Shown: piece after piece, positions 1,464 through 38,236 of the stretch | Layout of the letters: the number at the start of each line of letters is the position of its first letter | Numbering within the stretch: position 1 is the stretch's first letter | Source of the DNA: Basidioascus undulatus | Taxonomy: Eukaryota | Direction: 5' to 3' | DNA length: 38,236 nucleotides | NCBI GenBank assembly: GCA_000826855.1 | Contig: JTLS01000042.1 | Span: forward strand, 1-38,236 | The notes under the pieces: generated by a model | Told to the model about the DNA's origin: nothing | Database searches by the model: none | The model's input: the letters and a program-made list of their open reading frames with translations, nothing else | Program-made: the position numbers and the translations under genes

Positions 1464-4400
1464 ATGATGGCCGCCCCTGTATCCGACCAAGGCGGCCAGA
1501 ACGACGAAGGTGGTGTCCACCAAGACTCGCTTGTCCGTCTTCCCTGCTCCCCCCCCACCCCCCGGTGGTTCTAATCGCCTACACTTTCCCCTTCATAGAC
1601 ACTAGGCCAGCTTAAGCAGCTCACCTCTGCGTTTCCCAAGCCGCGCAAAGAGACATTCGCGTTCCGATATGACGACACGGACACCATACTCGCCGAGCTC
1701 GACGAGTTCTACTCGTATGTTGAGGTGCCTGCCGTGCTCGAGGCGAGGGACGAGTGGGTCCGGACGGGCGAGGGCGGTGCGTGTTCGTACTTCAGAGATT
1801 TCTATATAGGGGAACATTGGGCTAATGCGGTGGGGCCACAGAGTGGACCAAGATGAGCCAGGAGGAGAGGAGGGAGCTCGTGCGCCGCAAGTTGGACGGG
1901 CTGGATGCGAAGGATACGGGCGAGCGATTGGCCCATGCACGGAAGCTACTCTACATCCTCCAAGGTGCGCTTCTTCTTTATTTCCACACCACCCCCACCC
2001 CCTCCGGCATCAGCTCATCCCTCTCGACCAGGCACCTTCGCCGAGACGACCTCACCCGAGCACCAGCTGCACTGGGTGATCGAGAACGCCAAAACCGTGC
2101 GCGCCGCCTCGCCGAGCGCGATCCCCGCCATCGTCGACGCGCTCAAGGCCGCGTCGGCGCAGCACGAGTGGCTGAGCCTCGAGCCGCGCGAGCTAAGCGC
2201 GCAGGAGCGCGCGGAGCTCACTGAGGATGTCAATGCCGAGATCGCGACGTACTTTGCTATGCTGTATTTTGTCGTGGAGGTTTTTAGGGGGGAGGAGGCG
2301 TTTCGGGACGAGCTGAGTGAGTGGGGGGTGTGGGGGAGGAGGACGGGGAGAGGGCTGATGATGGATGGAGCACGCAGTGGATCTGGACCCGCCCCTGCCG
2401 ACTTATCTGTTTACGCTCGTCGCGGCGCTGAGGGACAAGACAGCGAAGGGGTATCCGGTCAAGAAGGTGCGTCAGCTTCCGGATTCAGGCCCTCCCGTTC
2501 CAAGGCTGACCGGACGTTACAACACTCAGCTGCTTCTCCTGTTGTGGAAGACGCTTTTGGCCTGCCTGGGCGGGATGCGCGACATCGAGCGCGTCAAGAA
2601 GCTCTCGCGCGAGCTCTCTGGCCTGGCGCCTTCTGCTGAACCCCCAGCCGATTCCGCAGGTGCGTACACATAACTCGCCCTTCGCCTGGCCGCTCATTAA
2701 TGCATGGTCCCTTTTAGCCCCCTTCGTCAAGACCACCCCCCTTGACTTCGATACCTTCCGGCACGAAATGGCGGTCAAGTACCCGACGTTCGCCGCCGCT
2801 CCCGAAGCCGGATCCACCTCAACCTCGTATGACCGGCTCGCGAGTGCGATCGCGCCGATCCCGGTCCGACCGTCCTATCACGACCGCAGCGGAACCTCCT
2901 CCTTCGCGGGGTTCGAGTCCTCGTCCTCCGGCGTGCCCGCGCCCGCAGGCCCGCTCCCCGCAACACCGGCGCCAACGCCCCCGCCCTCGCCCGCGCCGCC
3001 CAAGCCGAAGAAGCAGCAGTTTCAAACCGACCAGTCCAAGCCGTTCGTCTTCCCCTTCAGCGCGGCCGCGCACGGCGCGCGCTTCGTGCCGTACTCGATC
3101 GAGGAGGCGGGCCAGCTCTACGCAAGGCACATGCACGTCTCGACGGGGCTGTGGCAGATGTGGGCCGTGCGCGAGGAGTGCATCGCCGAGGAGGGCCCGG
3201 TGGGGTACAAGGCGCGCGCGGCGGCCGCGGCGGCGGAGGAGGAGGGGGAAGGCGAGCGAAGGAGGAAGGAGAAGGAGGAGGAGCGGGAGAGGGAGAGGAG
3301 GGAGGAGGAGGAGAGGGACCCCCTGAAGGCGCTGAGGGAACGGGATGCGGGGTTGGAGAGGGAGGTGCGGGACGCGGAGGAGAGCGGGGATAAGGCGCGC
3401 GTGCGGTGCGCAAGGGAGAGGAGATCGGACCTCAAGAGGCTCATGCGCATCGAGGTCATCTATGTGCGTCTTCCCACTCTTCCAGCACCAACCAACAGCC
3501 CCTGCTGTATAGATCAGATGATCTTGACGCCTCCCTGCACCGATACAGCGCGCCATCCTCCCCACCCTACAAAACAGCGTCATCGTTCTCCTCAAGCTCC
3601 TCCTCGCAACCGTCACCGCGAACGGGCCCAACCCGAACGCGCAGGCCGGTCCAAACGGGGTGTTCACTGAAGGTGGGGCGGGCGCCTCGCGTCTTAACTC
3701 GCTCACCGGCGCTGGAGCTGACGGATGAGGGTGGTTGCCTGATCCGTTTTCGGTTTTTGGCAGATGACCAGCCGCCCCCGACGCTCGAGGACATCGACGT
3801 CATGCGGCACCGCGAGATCACGTCCAAGGCTGTGAGCGCAATCATCCTGCTTATGCTCAAGTGGTTCAAGGCGTCCCGTGCGTTTCTCCCCTTCGCCTTC
3901 TGTGACAACGGCGTGTCGACGAGTGGCTGCGCTGGGTGGACAGACGTCATGAAGTTCCACTGGCTCGGGACGCTCCTTGTTGACTCCAACTGCCTGCTCC
4001 TCATCCTCAAGATGTTCGGGCTGCAGGAGGTGTCGGTCACGGTGCGGGCGAAGAACGAGGTGGAGGACAGCAAGTGCGTCTCCTTTCCTTCTCCCCCTTC
4101 CCCCTTCCCCTGACCTTCGCTCTTCGCGCCGCAGCTTCTTCCGCTACTGCCTCCTGCACGGCTCGAGCTCCCCGCACGCCGCGCGGCCGGAGGACGACGT
4201 CCTCGGCGGCGGCGGGGGCGGGGGCGGGACGCAGATGACAATCGTGAACGGCGAGGAGGTGAACCTCATCACGGACTACTCGTGGCGCAACTTTTTCGCG
4301 AGCGTCAACTTTACGCGCATCCTCCAGAAGCTCAGCAAGCGACGGACGCACCGCGTGCTCTTGCTAGTGCAGTACAAGAGCTCCGTGCGTGGGAGGGAAT

Positions 4401-6036
4401 GGGAGAGGGGAGAGGGGGATGAATGCTGATCCCGGGCGGGGGGACAGGCTATTTTGAAGCGGATACTCAAAGTCTCCCATCCGCTGCTTCAACTCTACGT
4501 CCTCAAGGTCATCAAGGGCCAGGTGCCGTACTGCGGCCGAAAGTGGCGACAATGTACGGACCCACCTCTTTGACACGCAGCACCGAGGCTGACAAACATG
4601 CTTGGATTGGGACCGCAGCAAATATGAAGGTCATCACGGCCATCTACCTCAACTGCCGACCGGATCTGCGCGACGAGTGGCTAGCGGGCGCGGACGTTGA
4701 TGCGGACATCGAGGAGTCTTTGGTGCGTTCGACGGTGTTCGAATCCTTGCATTAATGAGAATATGTGTGCTAACTCCGCCTGCGATAGCCTCAAGAACAG
4801 GCGCTTCGGTCACTGATCCGCTTCTGTGGGTGCTCTGATCTTGACAGCCGCTCTTCGCTTTATCTCAGCGGGCTCACTGGTGATCGCGGTCAGACAACAC
4901 CAAGCACTACGGCTTCTCGGGCACGGCACAACCAGGCGGCCACCGGCGGGCATCGAGCCAGCTCGGGGCCGCCGCGCCGTTCGAGGACCTCCGGACGTCG
5001 CCAGAAGGCCGGCGCGTCTCGGTCTCGTCTAACCGGGGCGAGGACGACGTCTTCCCGCCGCCGCATGCGCGGCCGTCCGATCAGGCCTCGCTCGCTTGGA
5101 TGCCGGACGACATCTTCGAGTCTGTCTTCTTCCCGTGGTTGCCCTTGATGCTGTGATAATGGTACTGATGATGTGGATGATCGGTACGAACAGCATGCAC
5201 GACTACGAGGATGTTCTGCACGAGATCTTTGGTGGGCTCGACGAGGAGCAGTACGACGCCCATGGGCACGAGATCGCATTGCGCGAGCTCAACCTCGACA
5301 AGCTCGACCGCGACTCAGTCGCGTGGAACCGGCTGGCTGAGATGCTCGGCCCCGACATCGCGGACGATATCAGCGATAGCGAGAGGTGCGTCTCCGTCCA
5401 AAGTGTGCCTGGCTTTTCCGCGGCTGAAGCTAGAAGGATCGGACAGCATCGTCACCGTTGGCGACCTTGGCGAACCCCGACAACTCGACAACGGCCGTGA
5501 GGGCGACGTGCCCGAGGAGAATCCAGGGCAGAACAATTGGGAGGTATGTCCTTCTTCCCTTTCTCTCCTTTCGCTTTTCTAAAAAGATTTCATCCATGCT
5601 TACCCGACAAACATGTTAGCACATCTCCGCCCAAACGCTCGCCAAGCTGCCGCCCTCGCCCTCTGGGCCGCAAGCGCGCCGCCGCAGCTCAGGCGGGTCC
5701 AACCTCCGCCCCGTCCTGCCGTTCGGGCTCGAGGACGCGACGGCGGCAGGGTCGGCCGTCGCGGACGAGGACGCCGCACAGCCGCTGCCACCCCCGGAGG
5801 GGAACCCGCCCGCGACGCACTTTGCTGGGGGCGCGGGAGGACTGGGAGTGGATGAGGTCGAGGTGCGGGGTTTCGTTCTCGCTTGTGTGGGTTTGCGGTC
5901 GAGGGTCAAGACTGACTTGCTTGCGCTGTTGTTTGCTTTGCGATCCCCGTTCGGCAGTATCTGTATGGCGGTAAGTCTTCTGGCATCCCGAGTGGCAGGT
6001 CACACGAACTGACATTAACGTTGTCTGTCAGAATGA
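1464..6036 (+). CDS. FAR11: Far11/STRIP1-2 (FAM40, HAM-2/PRO22) family STRIPAK subunit, N1221 + DUF3402 domains; multi-exon
   Basis: Spliced translation gives family-typical segments: TLGQLKQL...FAFRYDDTDTILAELDEFYSYVE, LLYILQGTFAETTSPEHQLHWV, GYPVKKLLLLLWKTLLACLGG, FRHEMAVKYPTF, QQFQTDQSKPFVFPF, VPYSIEEAGQLY, DVMRHREITSKAVSAIILLMLKWFK, YSWRNFFASVNFTRILQKLSK, LLLVQYKSSAILKR, NMKVITAIYLNCRPDLRDEWL. It ends VDEVEYLYGE* via a 13-nt exon (5958-5970) and TGA at 6034-6036. Confidence 0.93.
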
Positions 6037-22556: not shown

Positions 22557-23362
22557 TCATGCCTTCCCGCCCGCCTGCTCATTCTCCTTCTCCTTGGCCA
22601 GGATGTCCACGACGGTCTGGACCTTCTCTGCGTTGCTGCTGGACTTGTCCGTGCGCGTGCCGATGCGGATGTCGGTGGCGATCCTGCGTCGCCCGCCCAG
22701 TTTTGCCGAATTTAGCCTCCGGGGCAGGCTCAAGTAGAGTTGAAGGGTTGAAGGATACCTTTGGCAGCCCATCGCGTGCACGGCCTGTGACGGGGAAGTC
22801 AGTTGGCGATGCGTGTCACCGAGCGGAAGACGCACAGCATGGGAATCCCGAATGGCTGCCATGACCTTATCCCATGGACCCTCGATATTGGTGCCATCTA
22901 TCATGCAACCGTGCGAATCAGCCCAGCCCATCTGTCGCCCCCACGCCCCCCCTCACGTACAGCCGTGGAGCTGCGCCCCAGCGTCAGCGATAATGCTTCC
23001 GAGAATTCTTGCGGCAATTCGGGAAAAAACGCACAGAGTACGTGAGCCCGCTCCGCTCCAGAACGCGTTGCACCTCCGCGATCTCCGCCCCTACGCTGGG
23101 CTTCGGGAGGCCCATGGCTGTCCCAGATCCATCCCTTCATTAGCAAATAGCCGCCTTCGCAATAGCGTAGATTAGGACTGACGAATCAAGCAGAAGTCTG
23201 GATTTCATTACAGAGATCCAGGTAGACGTTCAGTCAGTCTCACACGCACGAATCGATCGAAGGGGAGGCAGGCGGACCGGCTACGGCCATGAGTTCGCCC
23301 GCGGGGTTGGGGTGAGCTTCGATAGGCGTCGACGATGTCGGAGGGAGGTCAGAGTTCGACAT
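22557..23362 (-). CDS. ECM15: UPF0045/DUF77 thiamine-binding protein family (Ecm15/YqgV-like); 7 exons
   Basis: Spliced: MSNSDLPP...MAVADFCLIPMGLPKPSVGAEIAEVQRVLERSGLTYSLHGYGTNIEGPWDKVMAAIRDSHAAVHAMGCQRIATDIRIGTRTDK...*. All introns GT-AG, including 15-nt (23183-23197) and 10-nt (22961-22970) exons. Confidence 0.9.
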
Positions 23363-25198: not shown

Positions 25199-28100
25199 CT
25201 ACGCGGGGAGGGCGGCGATGATGCGCTCGAGCTCGACGACGACGTCCTTTGCCGTCCCGCGCGCCTTGGGCTCGTGCGCCCACATTTTCTCGACGAGGGA
25301 GACGACGTCGTTGCCCCACTGCCTGCGCAGGCCGTGTACCGACGGACGCTGCTTCTTGGCCCCGACGAGGTCGTAGATCGCGTGCCTGGACCACGGACAA
25401 CACACGCATCAGTTGAGTGGAGTCGATGAGGATGGAGAAGTAGAAGTAGGAGCAAGGAAGAGGAAGACGACGACGCACTCGTTCAGCCCCTCCCAAGGGT
25501 ACTGCTTCTTCTCCAGGTGCCACTGCATGATCTCCCAGAAGACGAGCGCGCATGCAAAGATATCGACCGAGAACGAGTACGCGGGCTTGGGCTGCCAGAG
25601 CTCGGGCGCTGTTCATTCGCCTCTCCATCATACTCAGCCTCCGTTGCCTCGCCCTCAACTCATCTCGAAGCTGGTTCAAATACGCACGCTGCCAGTTGAC
25701 CGTCCCCACAAGCGAGCGGATGACGGACCGCGTGCTCTGCTTGACCCGCGCCTGCCAGCAGATCCAGTTCAGCCCAGTCTTTTTTTTCGTTGAGCCGAAA
25801 GCCAAACACGCACCAGCCCAAAGTCATTGAGCTTCGCGCGCCCATCAGCGGTGATGAGCACGTTTGAGCTCTTGACGTCGCGGTGGATGACGGCCGCGGG
25901 TTTGCGCGTGTGGAGATACTCGAGTCCTTTCGCGATGTCGAGCATGATCGTGAGCACGTTGCGGAGCGGCGGGGCGGGGACGTTCCGGATGTAGTCAAAC
26001 AGGTCGCCGTTGCCTGAGGGAGCGAGCGAGCGAGCGAGTGAGCGGGTGGATGGGGAGTGGCAATAGTGGGTCGGGTGAGAGAGGTGGGAAAGGAAGGGGA
26101 CGAACGACACAGCTCCGAAACGATCATGCAAGGCACGCTCCCGTCCGCAGGGATCGACACGCCGATGAACTTTGCGATGCTGTCCCCCGAAACCCACCAC
26201 AATATCAGCGAACGTTCTCCTGGGACAAGCCGCGAAGCCCGTACTTTGGGTGGTTGAGCTTCGAAAGCACCTGCAGCTCTTTGATGTCCACTGCAAGACG
26301 CATCAACCCCAGCTATCAGCGTCCATCTCCGCCAGCATCCCACTCCTCTCTTCGCGCGGGACATACTCTCCGACAGATTCCCCCGAATATCGGCGATCGC
26401 GCATTCCCTCTTCTTATACGTCCCAATATAAACGCTGTCCGACCCTCCTCTCATCAGCCTCCTCCCCTCTTCTCCCCACCTCTCCCCTCAACGCGCAACG
26501 CACTCCTTGAACCCCCCACTCCCAATCTTCTCCTTCTTCACGAGCTCCTCACAAGGGATCTCCCTGCTGTCCAAGCCCAGACTCTCAAGGTCGAGCTCGA
26601 TACCCTCGTCGACGGCCGCCGCGGGGGGCGCGTGCGGCTCGGGCGTCGGCTGGCGCGTCGGGAGGGCGGAAGGGTGGTCCAGAAGCGGAGGAGCCGCTGC
26701 TGCGCCCTTCTTGCCGCGGCCGGCGCCGGCGGGCTTCTTGAACGTCCCTGGGGGAGGGGGCGTGGGCGGGCGGGCCGTGGAGGTGGAGGAGGCGGAGGTG
26801 GAGGTGCGTTCGCGCTGCGAGGGGGGGGCACGAAGATCAGTAACGCGCTTCTTCTCGTTGCAACACCAACAACACCAAGTGAGAACGAGGTGGTGGTCAA
26901 ATAAGAAGACCGGAGGGGGAGAGGGGAATGCGGGGAAGAGTGTTTGTGGGGAGGGGCGGATAGGAGAGTGGGGGAAGGGAGCGGCGAAAGAAGGGAAGGG
27001 CGGGGAAGAGATGAAGACACGACTCACATAGTCCAACAACGTCTTAACCAAATCCTCCTTGGTCCCCTGCGCCCCCAACCCGCGCGTCTCGCAGAGCTTG
27101 ACGAGCTCCGCCTTCCTATACTTGCGCAGGCTGGTGACCGTCTCGGCTTCGAGGTCGCCGTCTCCCTCCGCCATGGATACGTCGGCGTCGGCATCGGGCG
27201 CATCTGCCACCCCCAACCACATAGTCAGACCGCGAATGTGAGAACAAGAAAAGGGAGAAGAGACGCACCTTCCTCCATCGCCTCCTCCTCCCCCTCCTCT
27301 TCCACCACCACCTCCTCCTCCCCCACGGGGCGCTTCGCCAGCCGCACCCTGCGCATCTTCCTCCCCGCGCCCAGCCCCTCAAACCCGCTACTCTTCTGCG
27401 CCTCCAGCTCGCCCTCCCCCTCCTCCCCTTCCTCCTCCTCCCCTGCGCCCTCGTCATCCCCATCACTTGCCGTAACAGTGCTCTGCCGCCTCCCGCGGCG
27501 GCCCGCCTTCCTCGTCCGGCGCTTACCCCGGGGCGTGGCATCCTCCTCATCTTCCTGCACCTCCTCCATGGCATCCTCCTCCCCCTCTTCTTCCTCCGAA
27601 GACCCCGAGTCCTCCACGTCCGACGAATTCGCGATCCGCTCCAGCGCAGCCTTCTTCGCGCGGCGCGTGGCGCGTGCAGCGGTGGCGGGCGCGGCAGGCT
27701 TGCGAGTGCGGCGGGCCGCAGCCGCCGCTGCGGTGGCGGGCGGGGAGGCGGACCCTTCCGCAGAAGCGTACGCGGAGGTGCTCGCGCTCGCGGAGCCGCG
27801 GCACATGCGCGCGAGACCGGCCGCGGGGCTGGGGAGGCCGTTGGGGAAGCGGGCAGCCCTGGCCGCTGCAGCTGCGGACGAGCCGGAGCCGGAGCGCTTG
27901 GCGGCGTTTTCGGACATGCTTTTTGAGCGGCGGGCGCGAGTGTTGGGCGCGGGAGGGGAGGCGGACGGGGAAGTAAGGGCGGAGGTGGAGGCAGATCCCG
28001 GTGCGGGGGCGAGGGGAAGTAAGGGCGTGGACGTGGAAGTGGAGCGGGTCGTGACGCGCCGCCGCTTGGGGGAGGAGCCTAGGGAGGCGCCGGAGGTTTG

Positions 28101-29110
28101 GCGCCGCGGCGCGGGGGCACGGCGCGGCTGGGAGGATGTGCGGGAGGAGGAGGGCGGGGGAGGCCGCGCGGGGGAGGTGGAGGATTGTTTGGAGGTACGG
28201 GTCGTGCGCTGTCATCGATCCGCGTGTCAGCCGTGCTCCGATGCTATACGAGGCAGACAAAGAGGGAGGGGAAAGGGTGTAAGGGAAGAAGGGGAAGGGA
28301 GAAGGAGGGTGGGAGGGCGAATGAACGCACCCATTTCCAGAGCGCGTCGACGAGCATCTCCTTCGTCCAGTTCTTGCCGTCCTCCTCTTCCGACTCGAGC
28401 AACGGGTCGTCGACCCAGATCCCCGCCGCGCGGTGGACGTTGACGAGCTGGCGCTTGAGCAGGCGGTGCAGCGCCGAGCGCGTCGCGCGGTGGACGAAGA
28501 AGTCCAGCTGCTCGTCTGTCGCACCAGAGCAAAAGGGTGTGTTCAGCGCGCTGAGTGAGAGTGGGATGGACGGGAAGAAAAACGCACCATCCAAGTGGTC
28601 GTCGCCGTCCGCGTCCGAATCCCCGTCGCGCTCGTCCTCCTCCTCGTCGTCAGACTCAGTCATCTCATCCATCTCCTCCTCGTCCACGCCGTCCTCCTCG
28701 GCCGTCGTCTCCTCCTCCTCCGCGCTACTCTCGACATCGCGGCTCCTCTTCCTCTTCCCGCCCACGCTCTTCTCGCTCCCCGCCGCGCTGTCAGCCCGGC
28801 TGAACTTCCTCAGCGCAGGGGCAGGGGGGGCAGCAGGGGCGGTCTTACGCAACCCTCCCGGCCCGTGCCCAAGCGCGGGGGCCTTGGTCAGGCTGCGCGG
28901 GCCCGTCTTGATCATCGCGCCCGAGCCCGCGCGGGTCTTTGGCCGGTTGGCCGCGTCGGAGATGGGCGCCAGGGCGGGGCGGCGCGTTGTGCGCAGGGAT
29001 GGGGGCGGGGCGTGGGCGGTGGTCGGGGTGGAGGACGAGTCGGAGTCGCGGGTGTGGGTGTGGACGTGCGTACGGCTGGCTCGGCGTTGGGGCAGCGGGT
29101 GTCGCGCCAT
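25199..29110 (-). CDS. TKL-group protein kinase with long disordered N-terminus, SAP/HeH-like motifs and WNK-type lysine placement; multi-exon
   Basis: Spliced kinase domain: KIGSGGFKDVYIGTYKKRECAIADIRGNLSEMDIKELQVLSKLNHPNIAKFIG...MIVSELCRNGDLFDYI...LDIAKGLEYLH...VIHRDVKSSNVLI...KLNDFGLAR...VGTVNWQPPELW...SVDIFACALVFWEI...YPW...RP...MWAHEPKAR. ATG at 29110, TAG at 25201-25199, introns canonical. Confidence 0.92.
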
Positions 29111-30558: not shown

Positions 30559-31330
30559 CTATCTAATCAAGTAATTCTGCCCTTGCTGTAGCGTGACGGG
30601 GCCTGCACCGTAACTAACCTGAAGCAAGGCCTCACGCTCTGCGCGCGGGACGGCCGTGTCGAGAGCAAGGCGGAGCATACTGTCTGGGAAGGGGAAGAAA
30701 GGCGCCCTTCCGCGATCGAATAAAGCCATGTAAGCGGCCGCTCGCATTTGGTCAGGTACTGCATATCCGATATCAGTGTTGCGTACAGACGCCGCGCTTC
30801 TTGGACCCTGTGGTCCTTCTCCGCCCTGTTCGAAAGGCGAAGCTTCACATCCTCCCGGTCGAGATACGTTGCCATAACTTCTCCGTCTATATTAGCGATC
30901 ACGGAACTGTAGTAGTCGAAGGACAGGCGTCCGGATACGTCCAGGAGCTTCGGCGCACAGCCGCCTGCGAGTTTTCGCATTTGATAGACCAAATCAGATT
31001 GAATCCGTAAGGCCTCTCGATGCGAGGCCGCGAAAGATTTTGACGACCCAAAGAAGTCCGTGTAGGATTGTGAAAAAACATATCTGGAGTCTCCGGAGAC
31101 GCATCGTCGAACTGGAAGAGGATCCAAGTCGAGGCGATCGGCCGAAACGCTCCGCTGCAGAAGGAGAAATCGGTCCCGATAGCGGATCATTACCAGGAAT
31201 TCGTCGCGTAGGATATCTGAAGCGAACAGTAATTTGCACTGGCTTGGTATCGATCATGGCCGCGCAGAATGGCGAGACACCGAAACCCTCCTCGATGGAA
31301 CGATTGATAGAAGAGTTTTGTTCCTCCATG
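30559..31330 (-). pseudogene. Possible degenerate kinase-like (PKL-fold) gene
   Basis: Overlapping ORFs join by frameshift: VVKIF / AASHREALRIQ..VYQMRKLAGGCAPKLL...SVIANIDGEVMATYL...LISDMQYL. This resembles beta3, alphaC, hinge and alphaE. No HxD or DFG found. Confidence 0.3.
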
Positions 31331-31708
31331 ATTCGAATAGAAGTTGAAGGGCATTTCGAACGGTCAAAAGTATACTTGAGTGGGCTCGGTAGAAAGGAGG
31401 GTGAAGATGGTCGGAATGAGAGAGGAGAAAAAGGTAAGATTTTGCCTCAGCGACCCGGGCTCGCTTATGTAAGTCTCTTGCGACGTGCGCTGTTCAACAA
31501 CGCACTCGTCTATGGGTTCTTATCCTTGAAGACAAAAGAAATGGAAAATATAATGTAGTGAGCGGCGCACTGTAACGGTTCCGACTCCGCAGTGCAAATG
31601 CAGCGTGACGTCTGTAGCCTGTCTCAGACCCGTTCCGATTGATTCGTTCCTTGCAACGATCATGCGTGCACTTTGCCTTCTGCCACCATCTCTTCTCGCC
31701 CCAGCGGA

Positions 31709-37392: not shown

Positions 37393-38091
37393 CTACCTCC
37401 TCCCCGCATACGGATCCACCATCCCAACAGACTGTGCCTTCTCGCCCATCTCCGGCGTATGTGGCCTGCTCTGGCCGGGCATCGGGCTAGGCACGGGGCT
37501 GTACGCGTGCGCGCCAGGGTAGGGCGGTGCGAGTTTCCCTCCGTACAGATGCGGGGGGACGGGCGCGACGACGCCGGCGCCGGCTTTCTCGCTCAGGGTA
37601 GCAGAGGCAGAGGAGGAGAGGGAGGTGATGGTGCTGGAGGAGGTGGAGGAGGGCCGGTTGTAGGCCATTGTGCTGGCTAGGACGGTCGACGCGCCGATGA
37701 CGAAGGCGGGCGTGATGTGGAAGTCGAAGAGCGCTACGGAGGCGACGAAGGAGAGGACGATGGACATGGAGGTGGCGAAGCCTTTGAGGATCTGCGGTGT
37801 GGTTTCGGTTCAGGGAGGGAGAGGTGGGAGGAAGGATGAAAGGAAGACCCGCGCACATTATCGCTGTACTTAATAACCACAGCGGTAATCAACCCGCCAA
37901 ACACCTGCGTGAGCACGGTCGCCCACGCCCAGGGCGTAAAGTTCCTAACGAGGTTGAAGCGTGCGAAGAGGCCCGCGCCTGCGGGGGCGTTGGAGCCGAG
38001 GACGACGGGGACGAGCGCGGGGACGAGCGAGAAGAGCGAGAGCTGGACGTTCCGCACCCAGAGGTCCGCGGACGAGCCTTTCAGCACTTTC
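37393..38091 (-). CDS. UDP-galactose/nucleotide-sugar transporter (SLC35A, gms1/Ugt1-like), last two exons; 5' part outside window
   Basis: KVLKGSSADLWVRNVQLSLFS...WAWATVLTQVFGGLITAVVIKYSDN|ILKGFATSMSIVLSFVASVALFDF. Exons 37857-38091 and 37393-37791. Confidence 0.92.
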
Positions 38092-38236
38092 CTGATTCCA
38101 GGCACCGTGAGATCAGCACTTCGGTTGTTCGAAAGGAGAGGAGAGAAAGGAAGGAAGGGAGGAGAGGAGGAGAGGGAGGGTGGTAGAACGTGTCGGTTGT
38201 TATTATCTGAGAGACATGAGTGAGTGAGCGAATGCG

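Follow-up and report, generated by a model that had tools for sequence, protein, structure and literature searches.

The lysine of the β3 strand (the VAIK lysine) is deemed invariant in protein kinases and is the residue usually mutated to make a kinase dead and usually scored when pseudokinases are counted. In the sections of the reviews available to us, the cases cited of a lysine relocated to β2 are WNK and POMK (SgK196), the latter being an independent case (PMC10211241, PMC13519141), and mutation of the β2 lysine abolishes activity in both WNK1 and POMK (PMC10211241). In WNK kinases such as WNK1 and WNK3 this lysine occupies the third Gly position of the Gly-rich loop, the β3 lysine is missing and the HRD motif is intact, while in POMK, whose substrate is a glycan, both HRD and DFG have been lost. 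Here we report on a predicted gene of Basidioascus undulatus whose product shares the lysine arrangement of WNK in a kinase domain of the tyrosine kinase-like (TKL) type. The gene lies on the minus strand (25199..29110) of contig JTLS01000042.1 (GenBank assembly GCA_000826855.1), of which positions 1 to 38,236, the whole stretch of DNA that was analysed, are called the window below; all features of the gene are on this strand. The original prediction, made from the window alone, was of a TKL-type fungal kinase with a WNK-style relocated catalytic lysine. We consider it probable that the gene encodes an active kinase of TKL descent in which the swap arose independently of WNK, and we observe fixation of the swap throughout a family whose age far exceeds that of the basidiomycetes.

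Both codons on which the prediction was based read as claimed. The Gly-rich loop, encoded together with the preceding linker and β1 by exon 5 (26504..26814), reads G-S-G-G-F-K-D-V-Y, with Lys711 (26506..26508) at the third Gly-loop position and the start of β2; this is the proposed catalytic lysine, which we take to be at the position of WNK1 Lys233. Exon 6 (26367..26434; β2–β3) encodes C-A-I-A-D-I, in which Ala726 (26392..26394) stands at the site of the β3 lysine. The catalytic motifs are likewise intact: the αC Glu739 (26277..26279) in exon 7 (26245-26290), the HRD-x-K-x-x-N motif with Asp820 (25877-25879) and the DFG motif with Asp838 (25823-25825), the last two in frame in exon 9 (25814..26013), which encodes the catalytic loop. 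The two introns of the N-lobe, intron 5 (26435..26503; GTGCGT...CTGAT...CAG), which splits the Asp codon following the loop lysine, and intron 6 (26291..26366; GTATGT...CTGAT...CAG), both have GT...CAG ends and a CTGAT branch site, and the unspliced frame through them runs into a stop. Enumeration of 440 open splice paths with one or two introns between the loop and αC yielded none that restores an A-x-K motif, and we therefore reject the possibility that alternative splicing supplies a β3 lysine. The path originally proposed also scored highest against a profile of the family from which the window was excluded (46.6 bits, the next path reaching 39.0).

The swap is a property of a whole family. 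Among 567 kinase domains covering the N-lobe (fragments were dropped), the family was defined as the 314 domains (313 database proteins, some of them near-copies, and the window protein) above a score gap at 226-265 bits; these form one clade. The loop position holds Lys in all 314. The β3 site is occupied by Ala (105), Gly (104), Ser (82) or Cys (19), with a gap in four, so that all 310 aligned domains carry a small residue and none the VAIK lysine, which is present in 217 of 230 other TKL and tyrosine kinase (TK) domains. Because a loop Lys occurs in only 1 of these 230 domains (4 of 233 when three swapped kinases of Anaeramoeba, discussed below, are included), the swap in the family cannot be due to chance. 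The co-conservation of the two positions is also evident from a search with exon 9, a query that lacks the N-lobe, so that the resulting count is not circular: it gave 257 matches, and the 120 listed comprised 116 family members and four plant kinases. Of the 116, 101 have Lys at the loop position, 12 are gapped there and three have Gln; the Gln residues were rejected as real variants, the gene models concerned beginning inside intron 5. Lys is thus present in 101/101 members with an intact loop, and Ala, Ser, Cys or Gly at the β3 site in 106/106 aligned members. Three further searches (150, 120 and 120 matches listed) used queries holding the N-lobe and may favour Lys-bearing members. The αC Glu is conserved in 106/106 aligned members of the exon 9 set and in 116/117 in a second alignment, and the gatekeeper, a Ser in the window protein (exon 8, 26106..26179, which encodes β4–β5 and the hinge), is Ser or Thr in 313/313 aligned family domains.

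The original prediction spoke of a basidiomycete family, which proved too narrow. Named members among the matches listed come from Wallemia, smut relatives, rusts, Mucorales, Mortierellales, Glomeromycotina, Calcarisporiella, Kickxellomycotina, Thamnocephalis, Massospora, Basidiobolus and the aphelids Amoeboaphelidium and Paraphelidium; they thus extend to Mucoromycota, zoopagomycete lineages and aphelids. Transcript-derived sequences are included (Paraphelidium P0392/P0495). Ascomycete or chytrid names were not found among the matches listed, though some deep members without a taxon name could be either. A search of the ESM Atlas returned generic TKL clusters only. In a quick tree of 71 rows, the window protein pairs with the Wallemia member (Shimodaira–Hasegawa-like approximate likelihood ratio test, SH-aLRT, 98). 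No close paralogue was found in the source genome, the assembly of which may be incomplete, and the window gene is presumably a single-copy member of the family. The same genome contains a second TKL-type kinase (L002, G000:C1781) of canonical appearance, with a loop Gly and a β3 Lys. Some Mucoromycota have two family members, i.e., Calcarisporiella (P0197 and P0343) and Mortierella alpina (P0313 and P0324); the Calcarisporiella protein P0197 is longer and branches away from the compact clade. In two deep members (P0392, P0415) the loop reads Y-K-T-V, which is near the F-K-T-V of WNK, but Thr at this position occurs in 2/314 domains and is probably fortuitous.

In the family and in WNK the swap is in exact register, and the activation-loop Ser of WNK is at the same position. 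In most other respects the family differs from WNK: it has DFG where WNK has DLG, HRDxKSxN where WNK has HRDLKCDN and GTxNW where WNK has GTPEF, and it possesses a TKL-type C-lobe, a SAP-like domain at the N-terminal side and no detected CCT domain, and forms a separate clade. The best matches in sequence and fold are with CTR1, DLK (MAP3K12), ZAK (MAP3K20), TNNI3K and BRAF, with which it also shares the columns diagnostic of TKL. CTR1, unlike the family, retains the β3 Lys and, in the loop, has Gly or another small residue, and DLK, ZAK, TNNI3K and BRAF do the same; specific orthology of the family to any of these five was not found. A search of the PDB with the single sequence gave CTR1 first (133 bits), followed by DLK, ZAK and TNNI3K. 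Searches with the family profile and by fold placed TKL and TK kinases first, Raf being among the best matches, and WNK was absent from the 60 profile matches listed and from those listed by three fold searches, which do not separate kinase groups sharply. A column-by-column comparison (11 family, 7 WNK, 20 TKL/TK and 14 outgroup rows) revealed 12 columns in which the family agrees with TKL only and a single one, the Lys itself, in which it agrees with WNK only. Of 26 WNK-specific columns (VAW, KCDNIF, GTPEF, etc.) the family shares just this Lys, whereas it shares 7 of 11 TKL-specific ones (HRDxKSxN, GTxxW, WE, W..P..RP). The spacing between loop and β3 is 15 residues in the family, as in canonical TKLs, and 17 in 20/20 WNKs; these 20 are the WNKs with a complete unspliced kinase core among 113 loci recognized by motif.

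Phylogenetic analysis agrees with this assignment, although the TKLs sampled were chosen for their similarity to the family, without curation. A tree restricted to TKLs (71 rows) put no constraint on WNK attaching next to the family, and 14 non-TKL kinases were therefore added (AGC, CAMK, CMGC and STE were among the groups compared). In the preferred tree, which includes these outgroups and omits the four trait columns, the family joins TKL and TK in a clade (100/99) without WNK, and a second tree gave the same clade with an SH-aLRT of 99. WNK is monophyletic (100/100) without the family, and nesting of the family inside WNK was not encountered in further trees either. The TKL character of the domain noted in the original prediction is thus borne out, and its more far-reaching suggestion, an independent origin of the WNK mechanism, is favoured. 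Several results weigh against it. WNK1 ranks high for a non-TKL kinase in the single-sequence PDB search (102 bits). Approximately unbiased (AU) tests did not reject a sister relationship of the family and WNK; without outgroups p was 0.82, the constrained tree being 24 log-likelihood units better, and further tests gave p 0.26 and p 0.11. In both outgroup-rooted best trees, moreover, the swapped TKL lineages fall outside the 20 canonical TKL/TK rows, albeit with weak support (69/90). Because the AU tests fail to reject the WNK sister link, we consider independence from WNK likely rather than certain.

The same results bear on the possibility that the loop lysine was inherited, either because the family is sister to WNK or because early TKLs had both lysines, as PKDCC does, and the β3 one was lost separately in the family, in Anaeramoeba and in POMK. 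The position of the swapped lineages outside the canonical rows would fit an inherited loop Lys with repeated loss of the β3 lysine. Anaeramoeba ignava, a metamonad, has TKLs of the ankyrin type that, judged from their sequences, are a further swapped lineage: P0451, P0453 and P0454 resemble the family in having a loop Lys, no β3 Lys and intact HRD and DFG motifs, but their β3 site holds Met or Leu, they form their own clade (100/99) and P0453 has ankyrin repeats in place of SAP. A family–Anaeramoeba link was not rejected (p 0.235), whereas the grouping of all swapped kinases into one clade was (p 0.0135; these two AU tests and that giving p 0.11 were run under LG+F+G4). The nearest rows to the family (94/93) are two domains of P0210, a protein of 1715 aa with five tandem divergent TKL-type domains and a Pfam match to PIP49_C. 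These two domains carry a loop Arg and a β3 Lys; they may group beside the family by long-branch pull. From its motif style and the PIP49_C match P0210 may be PKDCC-like, but we do not rely on this label, since POMK was absent from the 60 PDB matches listed for P0210. PKDCC itself has an extra β2 Lys (bioRxiv 10.64898/2026.02.19.706771); the trees contained neither POMK nor PKDCC sequences. Against inheritance stand the single WNK-specific column shared, the canonical spacing between loop and β3, the rejection of one swapped clade, the poor support of the basal placements, the long branch of P0210, the absence of POMK from its PDB matches listed and the fact that none of the 314 family domains carries both lysines. 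We therefore regard inheritance of the loop lysine as unlikely. A second origin of the swap would in itself not be novel, as POMK is a precedent (PMC10211241, PMC13519141); the family, in contrast to POMK, keeps all canonical protein-kinase motifs. No description of the swap in this family was found in the literature searched; subscription papers and supplements may bear on its novelty.

The conservation of the catalytic residues suggests that the family consists of active kinases. Of 310 family domains that could be scored, 309 retain the HRD-Asp, the Lys and Asn of the catalytic loop and the DFG-Asp. An activation-loop Ser or Thr three residues before the GT motif occurs in 313/314 (in the window protein a Ser, 25713-25715, three residues before GTxNW, in exon 10, 25688..25751, which encodes the activation segment), as does a basic residue at DFG+3 (313/314); such a combination fits an RD kinase that is switched on by phosphorylation. 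The 12 other domains that lack both the β3 Lys and a loop Lys provide an internal control: all 12 have lost the HRD-Asp or the DFG-Asp. Decay of these Asp residues or an uncompensated loss of the β3 Lys, by which pseudokinases are recognized, is not seen in 309 of 310 family domains, and the compensating Lys is invariant; a strict three-residue rule would nonetheless flag the family. The catalytic-loop Lys (309/310) also sets the family apart from tyrosine kinases, whose catalytic loop reads HRDLAARN or HRDLRAAN (PMC3937382). In an AlphaFold model of the Basidiobolus member (111 rows; predicted local distance difference test, pLDDT, 86), which superseded an earlier one with too poor a loop (14 rows, pLDDT 66), the Lys is the first residue of β2.

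The best reading of these data is a phospho-regulated, active Ser/Thr kinase with compensation of the WNK/POMK type. The ATP-anchoring lysine would have left β3 and now stand where β2 starts, in the third Gly position of the loop. The small residue (Gly, Ala, Ser or Cys) at the vacated β3 site would leave space for the side chain of the β2 Lys, which, as in WNK1 and POMK, could thus reach the phosphates of ATP and the acidic residues of αC and DFG. The kinase would be of the RD type and be activated via phosphorylation of the conserved activation-loop Ser/Thr, the SAP-like domain would position it, plausibly in the nucleus, and it would descend from TKL kinases rather than from WNK and probably not act as a chloride sensor.

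Functional information may be available from Cryptococcus neoformans, whose family member is probably YKL1 (CNAG_06671). This identification rests on the name, the chromosome letter and the range rather than on the sequence of the locus tag: the family protein of strain H99 (AFR95956) is named "TKL protein kinase," and CNAG_06671 is the sole gene with this description in the published kinase tables (PMC5052723). The BLAST table for YKL1 in the same paper shows strong matches in basidiomycetes and Phycomyces, generic matches only in the listed ascomycetes, Batrachochytrium, Encephalitozoon and Rhizopus oryzae, and for Allomyces a best match labelled WNK8 (2e-23). This pattern fits the range of the family, but the table can miss members, since Rhizopus members were found in our family search. 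The lysine swap and the SAP domain are not mentioned in the available parts of the paper, and the terms "WNK" and "pseudokinase" do not occur in its main text. Deletion of YKL1 affected capsule (-1), urease (+1) and peroxide (+1) and scored 0 in 27 other tests (PMC5052723).

Three weak phenotypes in 30 tests for this probable orthologue count against the reading as an active kinase and would fit a nucleotide-binding pseudokinase or very weak kinase, in which the loop Lys helps to hold ATP and the domain serves as scaffold or allosteric partner of another kinase; in plants and fungi, moreover, pseudokinases are more abundant in TKL than in any other group (PMC10211241). We nevertheless judge this to be rather improbable, given that the residues for phosphotransfer have been retained from aphelids to mushrooms, that the uncompensated β3-less domains have all lost an essential Asp and that the family has conserved both the phospho-site of the activation loop and the basic residue paired with it.

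The original prediction also raised the question of sensitivity to chloride, and the family could be a fungal stand-in for WNK, i.e., a sensor of chloride or osmolarity with an anion site in the space freed at β3. A WNK was not found in the source genome (the best match, at 45.6 bits, concerned generic kinases), the residues at the positions of WNK1 Leu299, Gly370 and Leu371 are similar in the family and, according to a review, the placement of the Lys may permit chloride binding (PMC7606576). However, the position of WNK1 Leu369, in the DLG/DFG motif, is Phe in 314/314 family domains and Leu in 20/20 WNKs, and it is the L369F substitution that removes chloride inhibition of WNK1 (PMC7606576). 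The OSR1_C/CCT domain (PF12202) was not detected in the 13 family proteins scanned, with scores in the two WNK controls of 33.9 bits (over the cut-off) and 20.3 bits (under it), and the kinase domain of the window protein ends at the stop codon. The probable Cryptococcus deletion strain was also wild-type on KCl, NaCl and sorbitol (6/6 tests). On these three grounds a chloride-sensing role is unlikely, and a stand-in for WNK seems highly improbable.

Sequencing or gene-modelling errors in the window are effectively refuted as an explanation, because the two diagnostic codons are exonic, A-x-K does not arise from any splice path and the same motifs occur in 313 database proteins, even if one residue elsewhere in the domain, the first of the APE motif, may be a base error: this motif reads PPE in the window gene (codon split across 25607-25608 and 25688), against Ala in 306 and Pro in 2 of 313 aligned family domains, and may also be a true substitution.

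Overlooked in the original prediction, a SAP-like domain (Pfam PF02037) is encoded by the end of exon 4 (27028..27129). The exon scores 31.3 bits and the Basidiobolus member 31.2 bits (Pfam cut-off 23.9), while 7 further proteins of the 13 scanned match under the cut-off. Over the family, a SAP-like match was obtained in 261 of the 278 proteins with at least 90 residues before the kinase domain. The net charge of the SAP-like core is near zero (mean +0.3; 112 proteins), so that it may not bind nucleic acids. Outside the basidiomycetes, most members are compact proteins of the SAP-kinase type, ~370-390 residues long. The window protein has, in addition, a long N-terminus of low complexity, which is acidic, basic and proline-rich and contains basic runs that to us resemble nuclear localization signals, followed by the SAP-like domain and the C-terminal TKL kinase domain. 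Exon 2 (28331..28515; residues ~174-236) encodes a weakly conserved element that is common to Cryptococcus and two other long members; blastp matches were found in 6 family proteins, including that of Cryptococcus (E ~1e-3 to 1e-4), and a Pfam scan gave no match. In our reading it may be a degenerate second SAP-like hairpin.

The predicted gene model comprises 12 exons encoding 967 aa, with 11 introns that are all GT..AG and a single terminal stop; the start codon and exons 1 and 3 were inferred from the open frame and splice signals alone. The C-lobe is completed by exon 11 (25479..25608), with the (P)PE motif and αF, and exon 12 (25199..25385), with αG–αI, the TKL-type W..P..R motif and the stop. 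Upstream of the kinase gene, long minus-strand open frames extend over 30570-31618, of which 30570-31253 was scanned without a Pfam match. Elsewhere the window contains, on the plus strand, a gene with N1221 and DUF3402 domains (2510-4426 and beyond), presumably Far11/STRIP-like, which is faced by a basic, serine-rich open frame without Pfam match (388-1407, minus). Also on the minus strand are a match to a family of small thiamine-binding proteins (22560-22952; PF01910) and a partial gene for a nucleotide-sugar transporter (37737-38234; PF04142).

TKL kinases with a SAP domain and a relocated catalytic lysine, distributed from aphelids to mushrooms, are best classed as a novel TKL variant. 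The interest of the family is limited by the precedents for its mechanism in WNK and POMK and by the nearly silent phenotype of the probable Cryptococcus deletion. A more extensive scenario, which we put forward tentatively and hold to be doubtful, would see in it an active TKL lineage tethered by SAP and associated with chromatin or RNA that is as old as the split between aphelids and fungi and was lost in ascomycetes. Together with Anaeramoeba and POMK/PKDCC it would then record repeated migration of the lysine inside TKL through a two-lysine intermediate, and the open β3 pocket would be a site for a regulatory ligand other than the chloride site of WNK. If this were true, the family would be a natural, DFG-bearing counterpart of WNK in which migration of the lysine is separated from chloride sensing.

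Having no β3 Lys but retaining the other motifs, the members of this family would be miscounted as dead by motif checks, and the standard kinase-dead control is impossible for them because the lysine concerned is absent. As yeasts and other ascomycetes appear to lack the family, an old fungal signalling protein may have been missed. Since it combines the moved lysine with DFG, the chloride-insensitive form, the family would allow a direct test of the question posed by WNK, namely whether the moved lysine is tied to chloride sensing.

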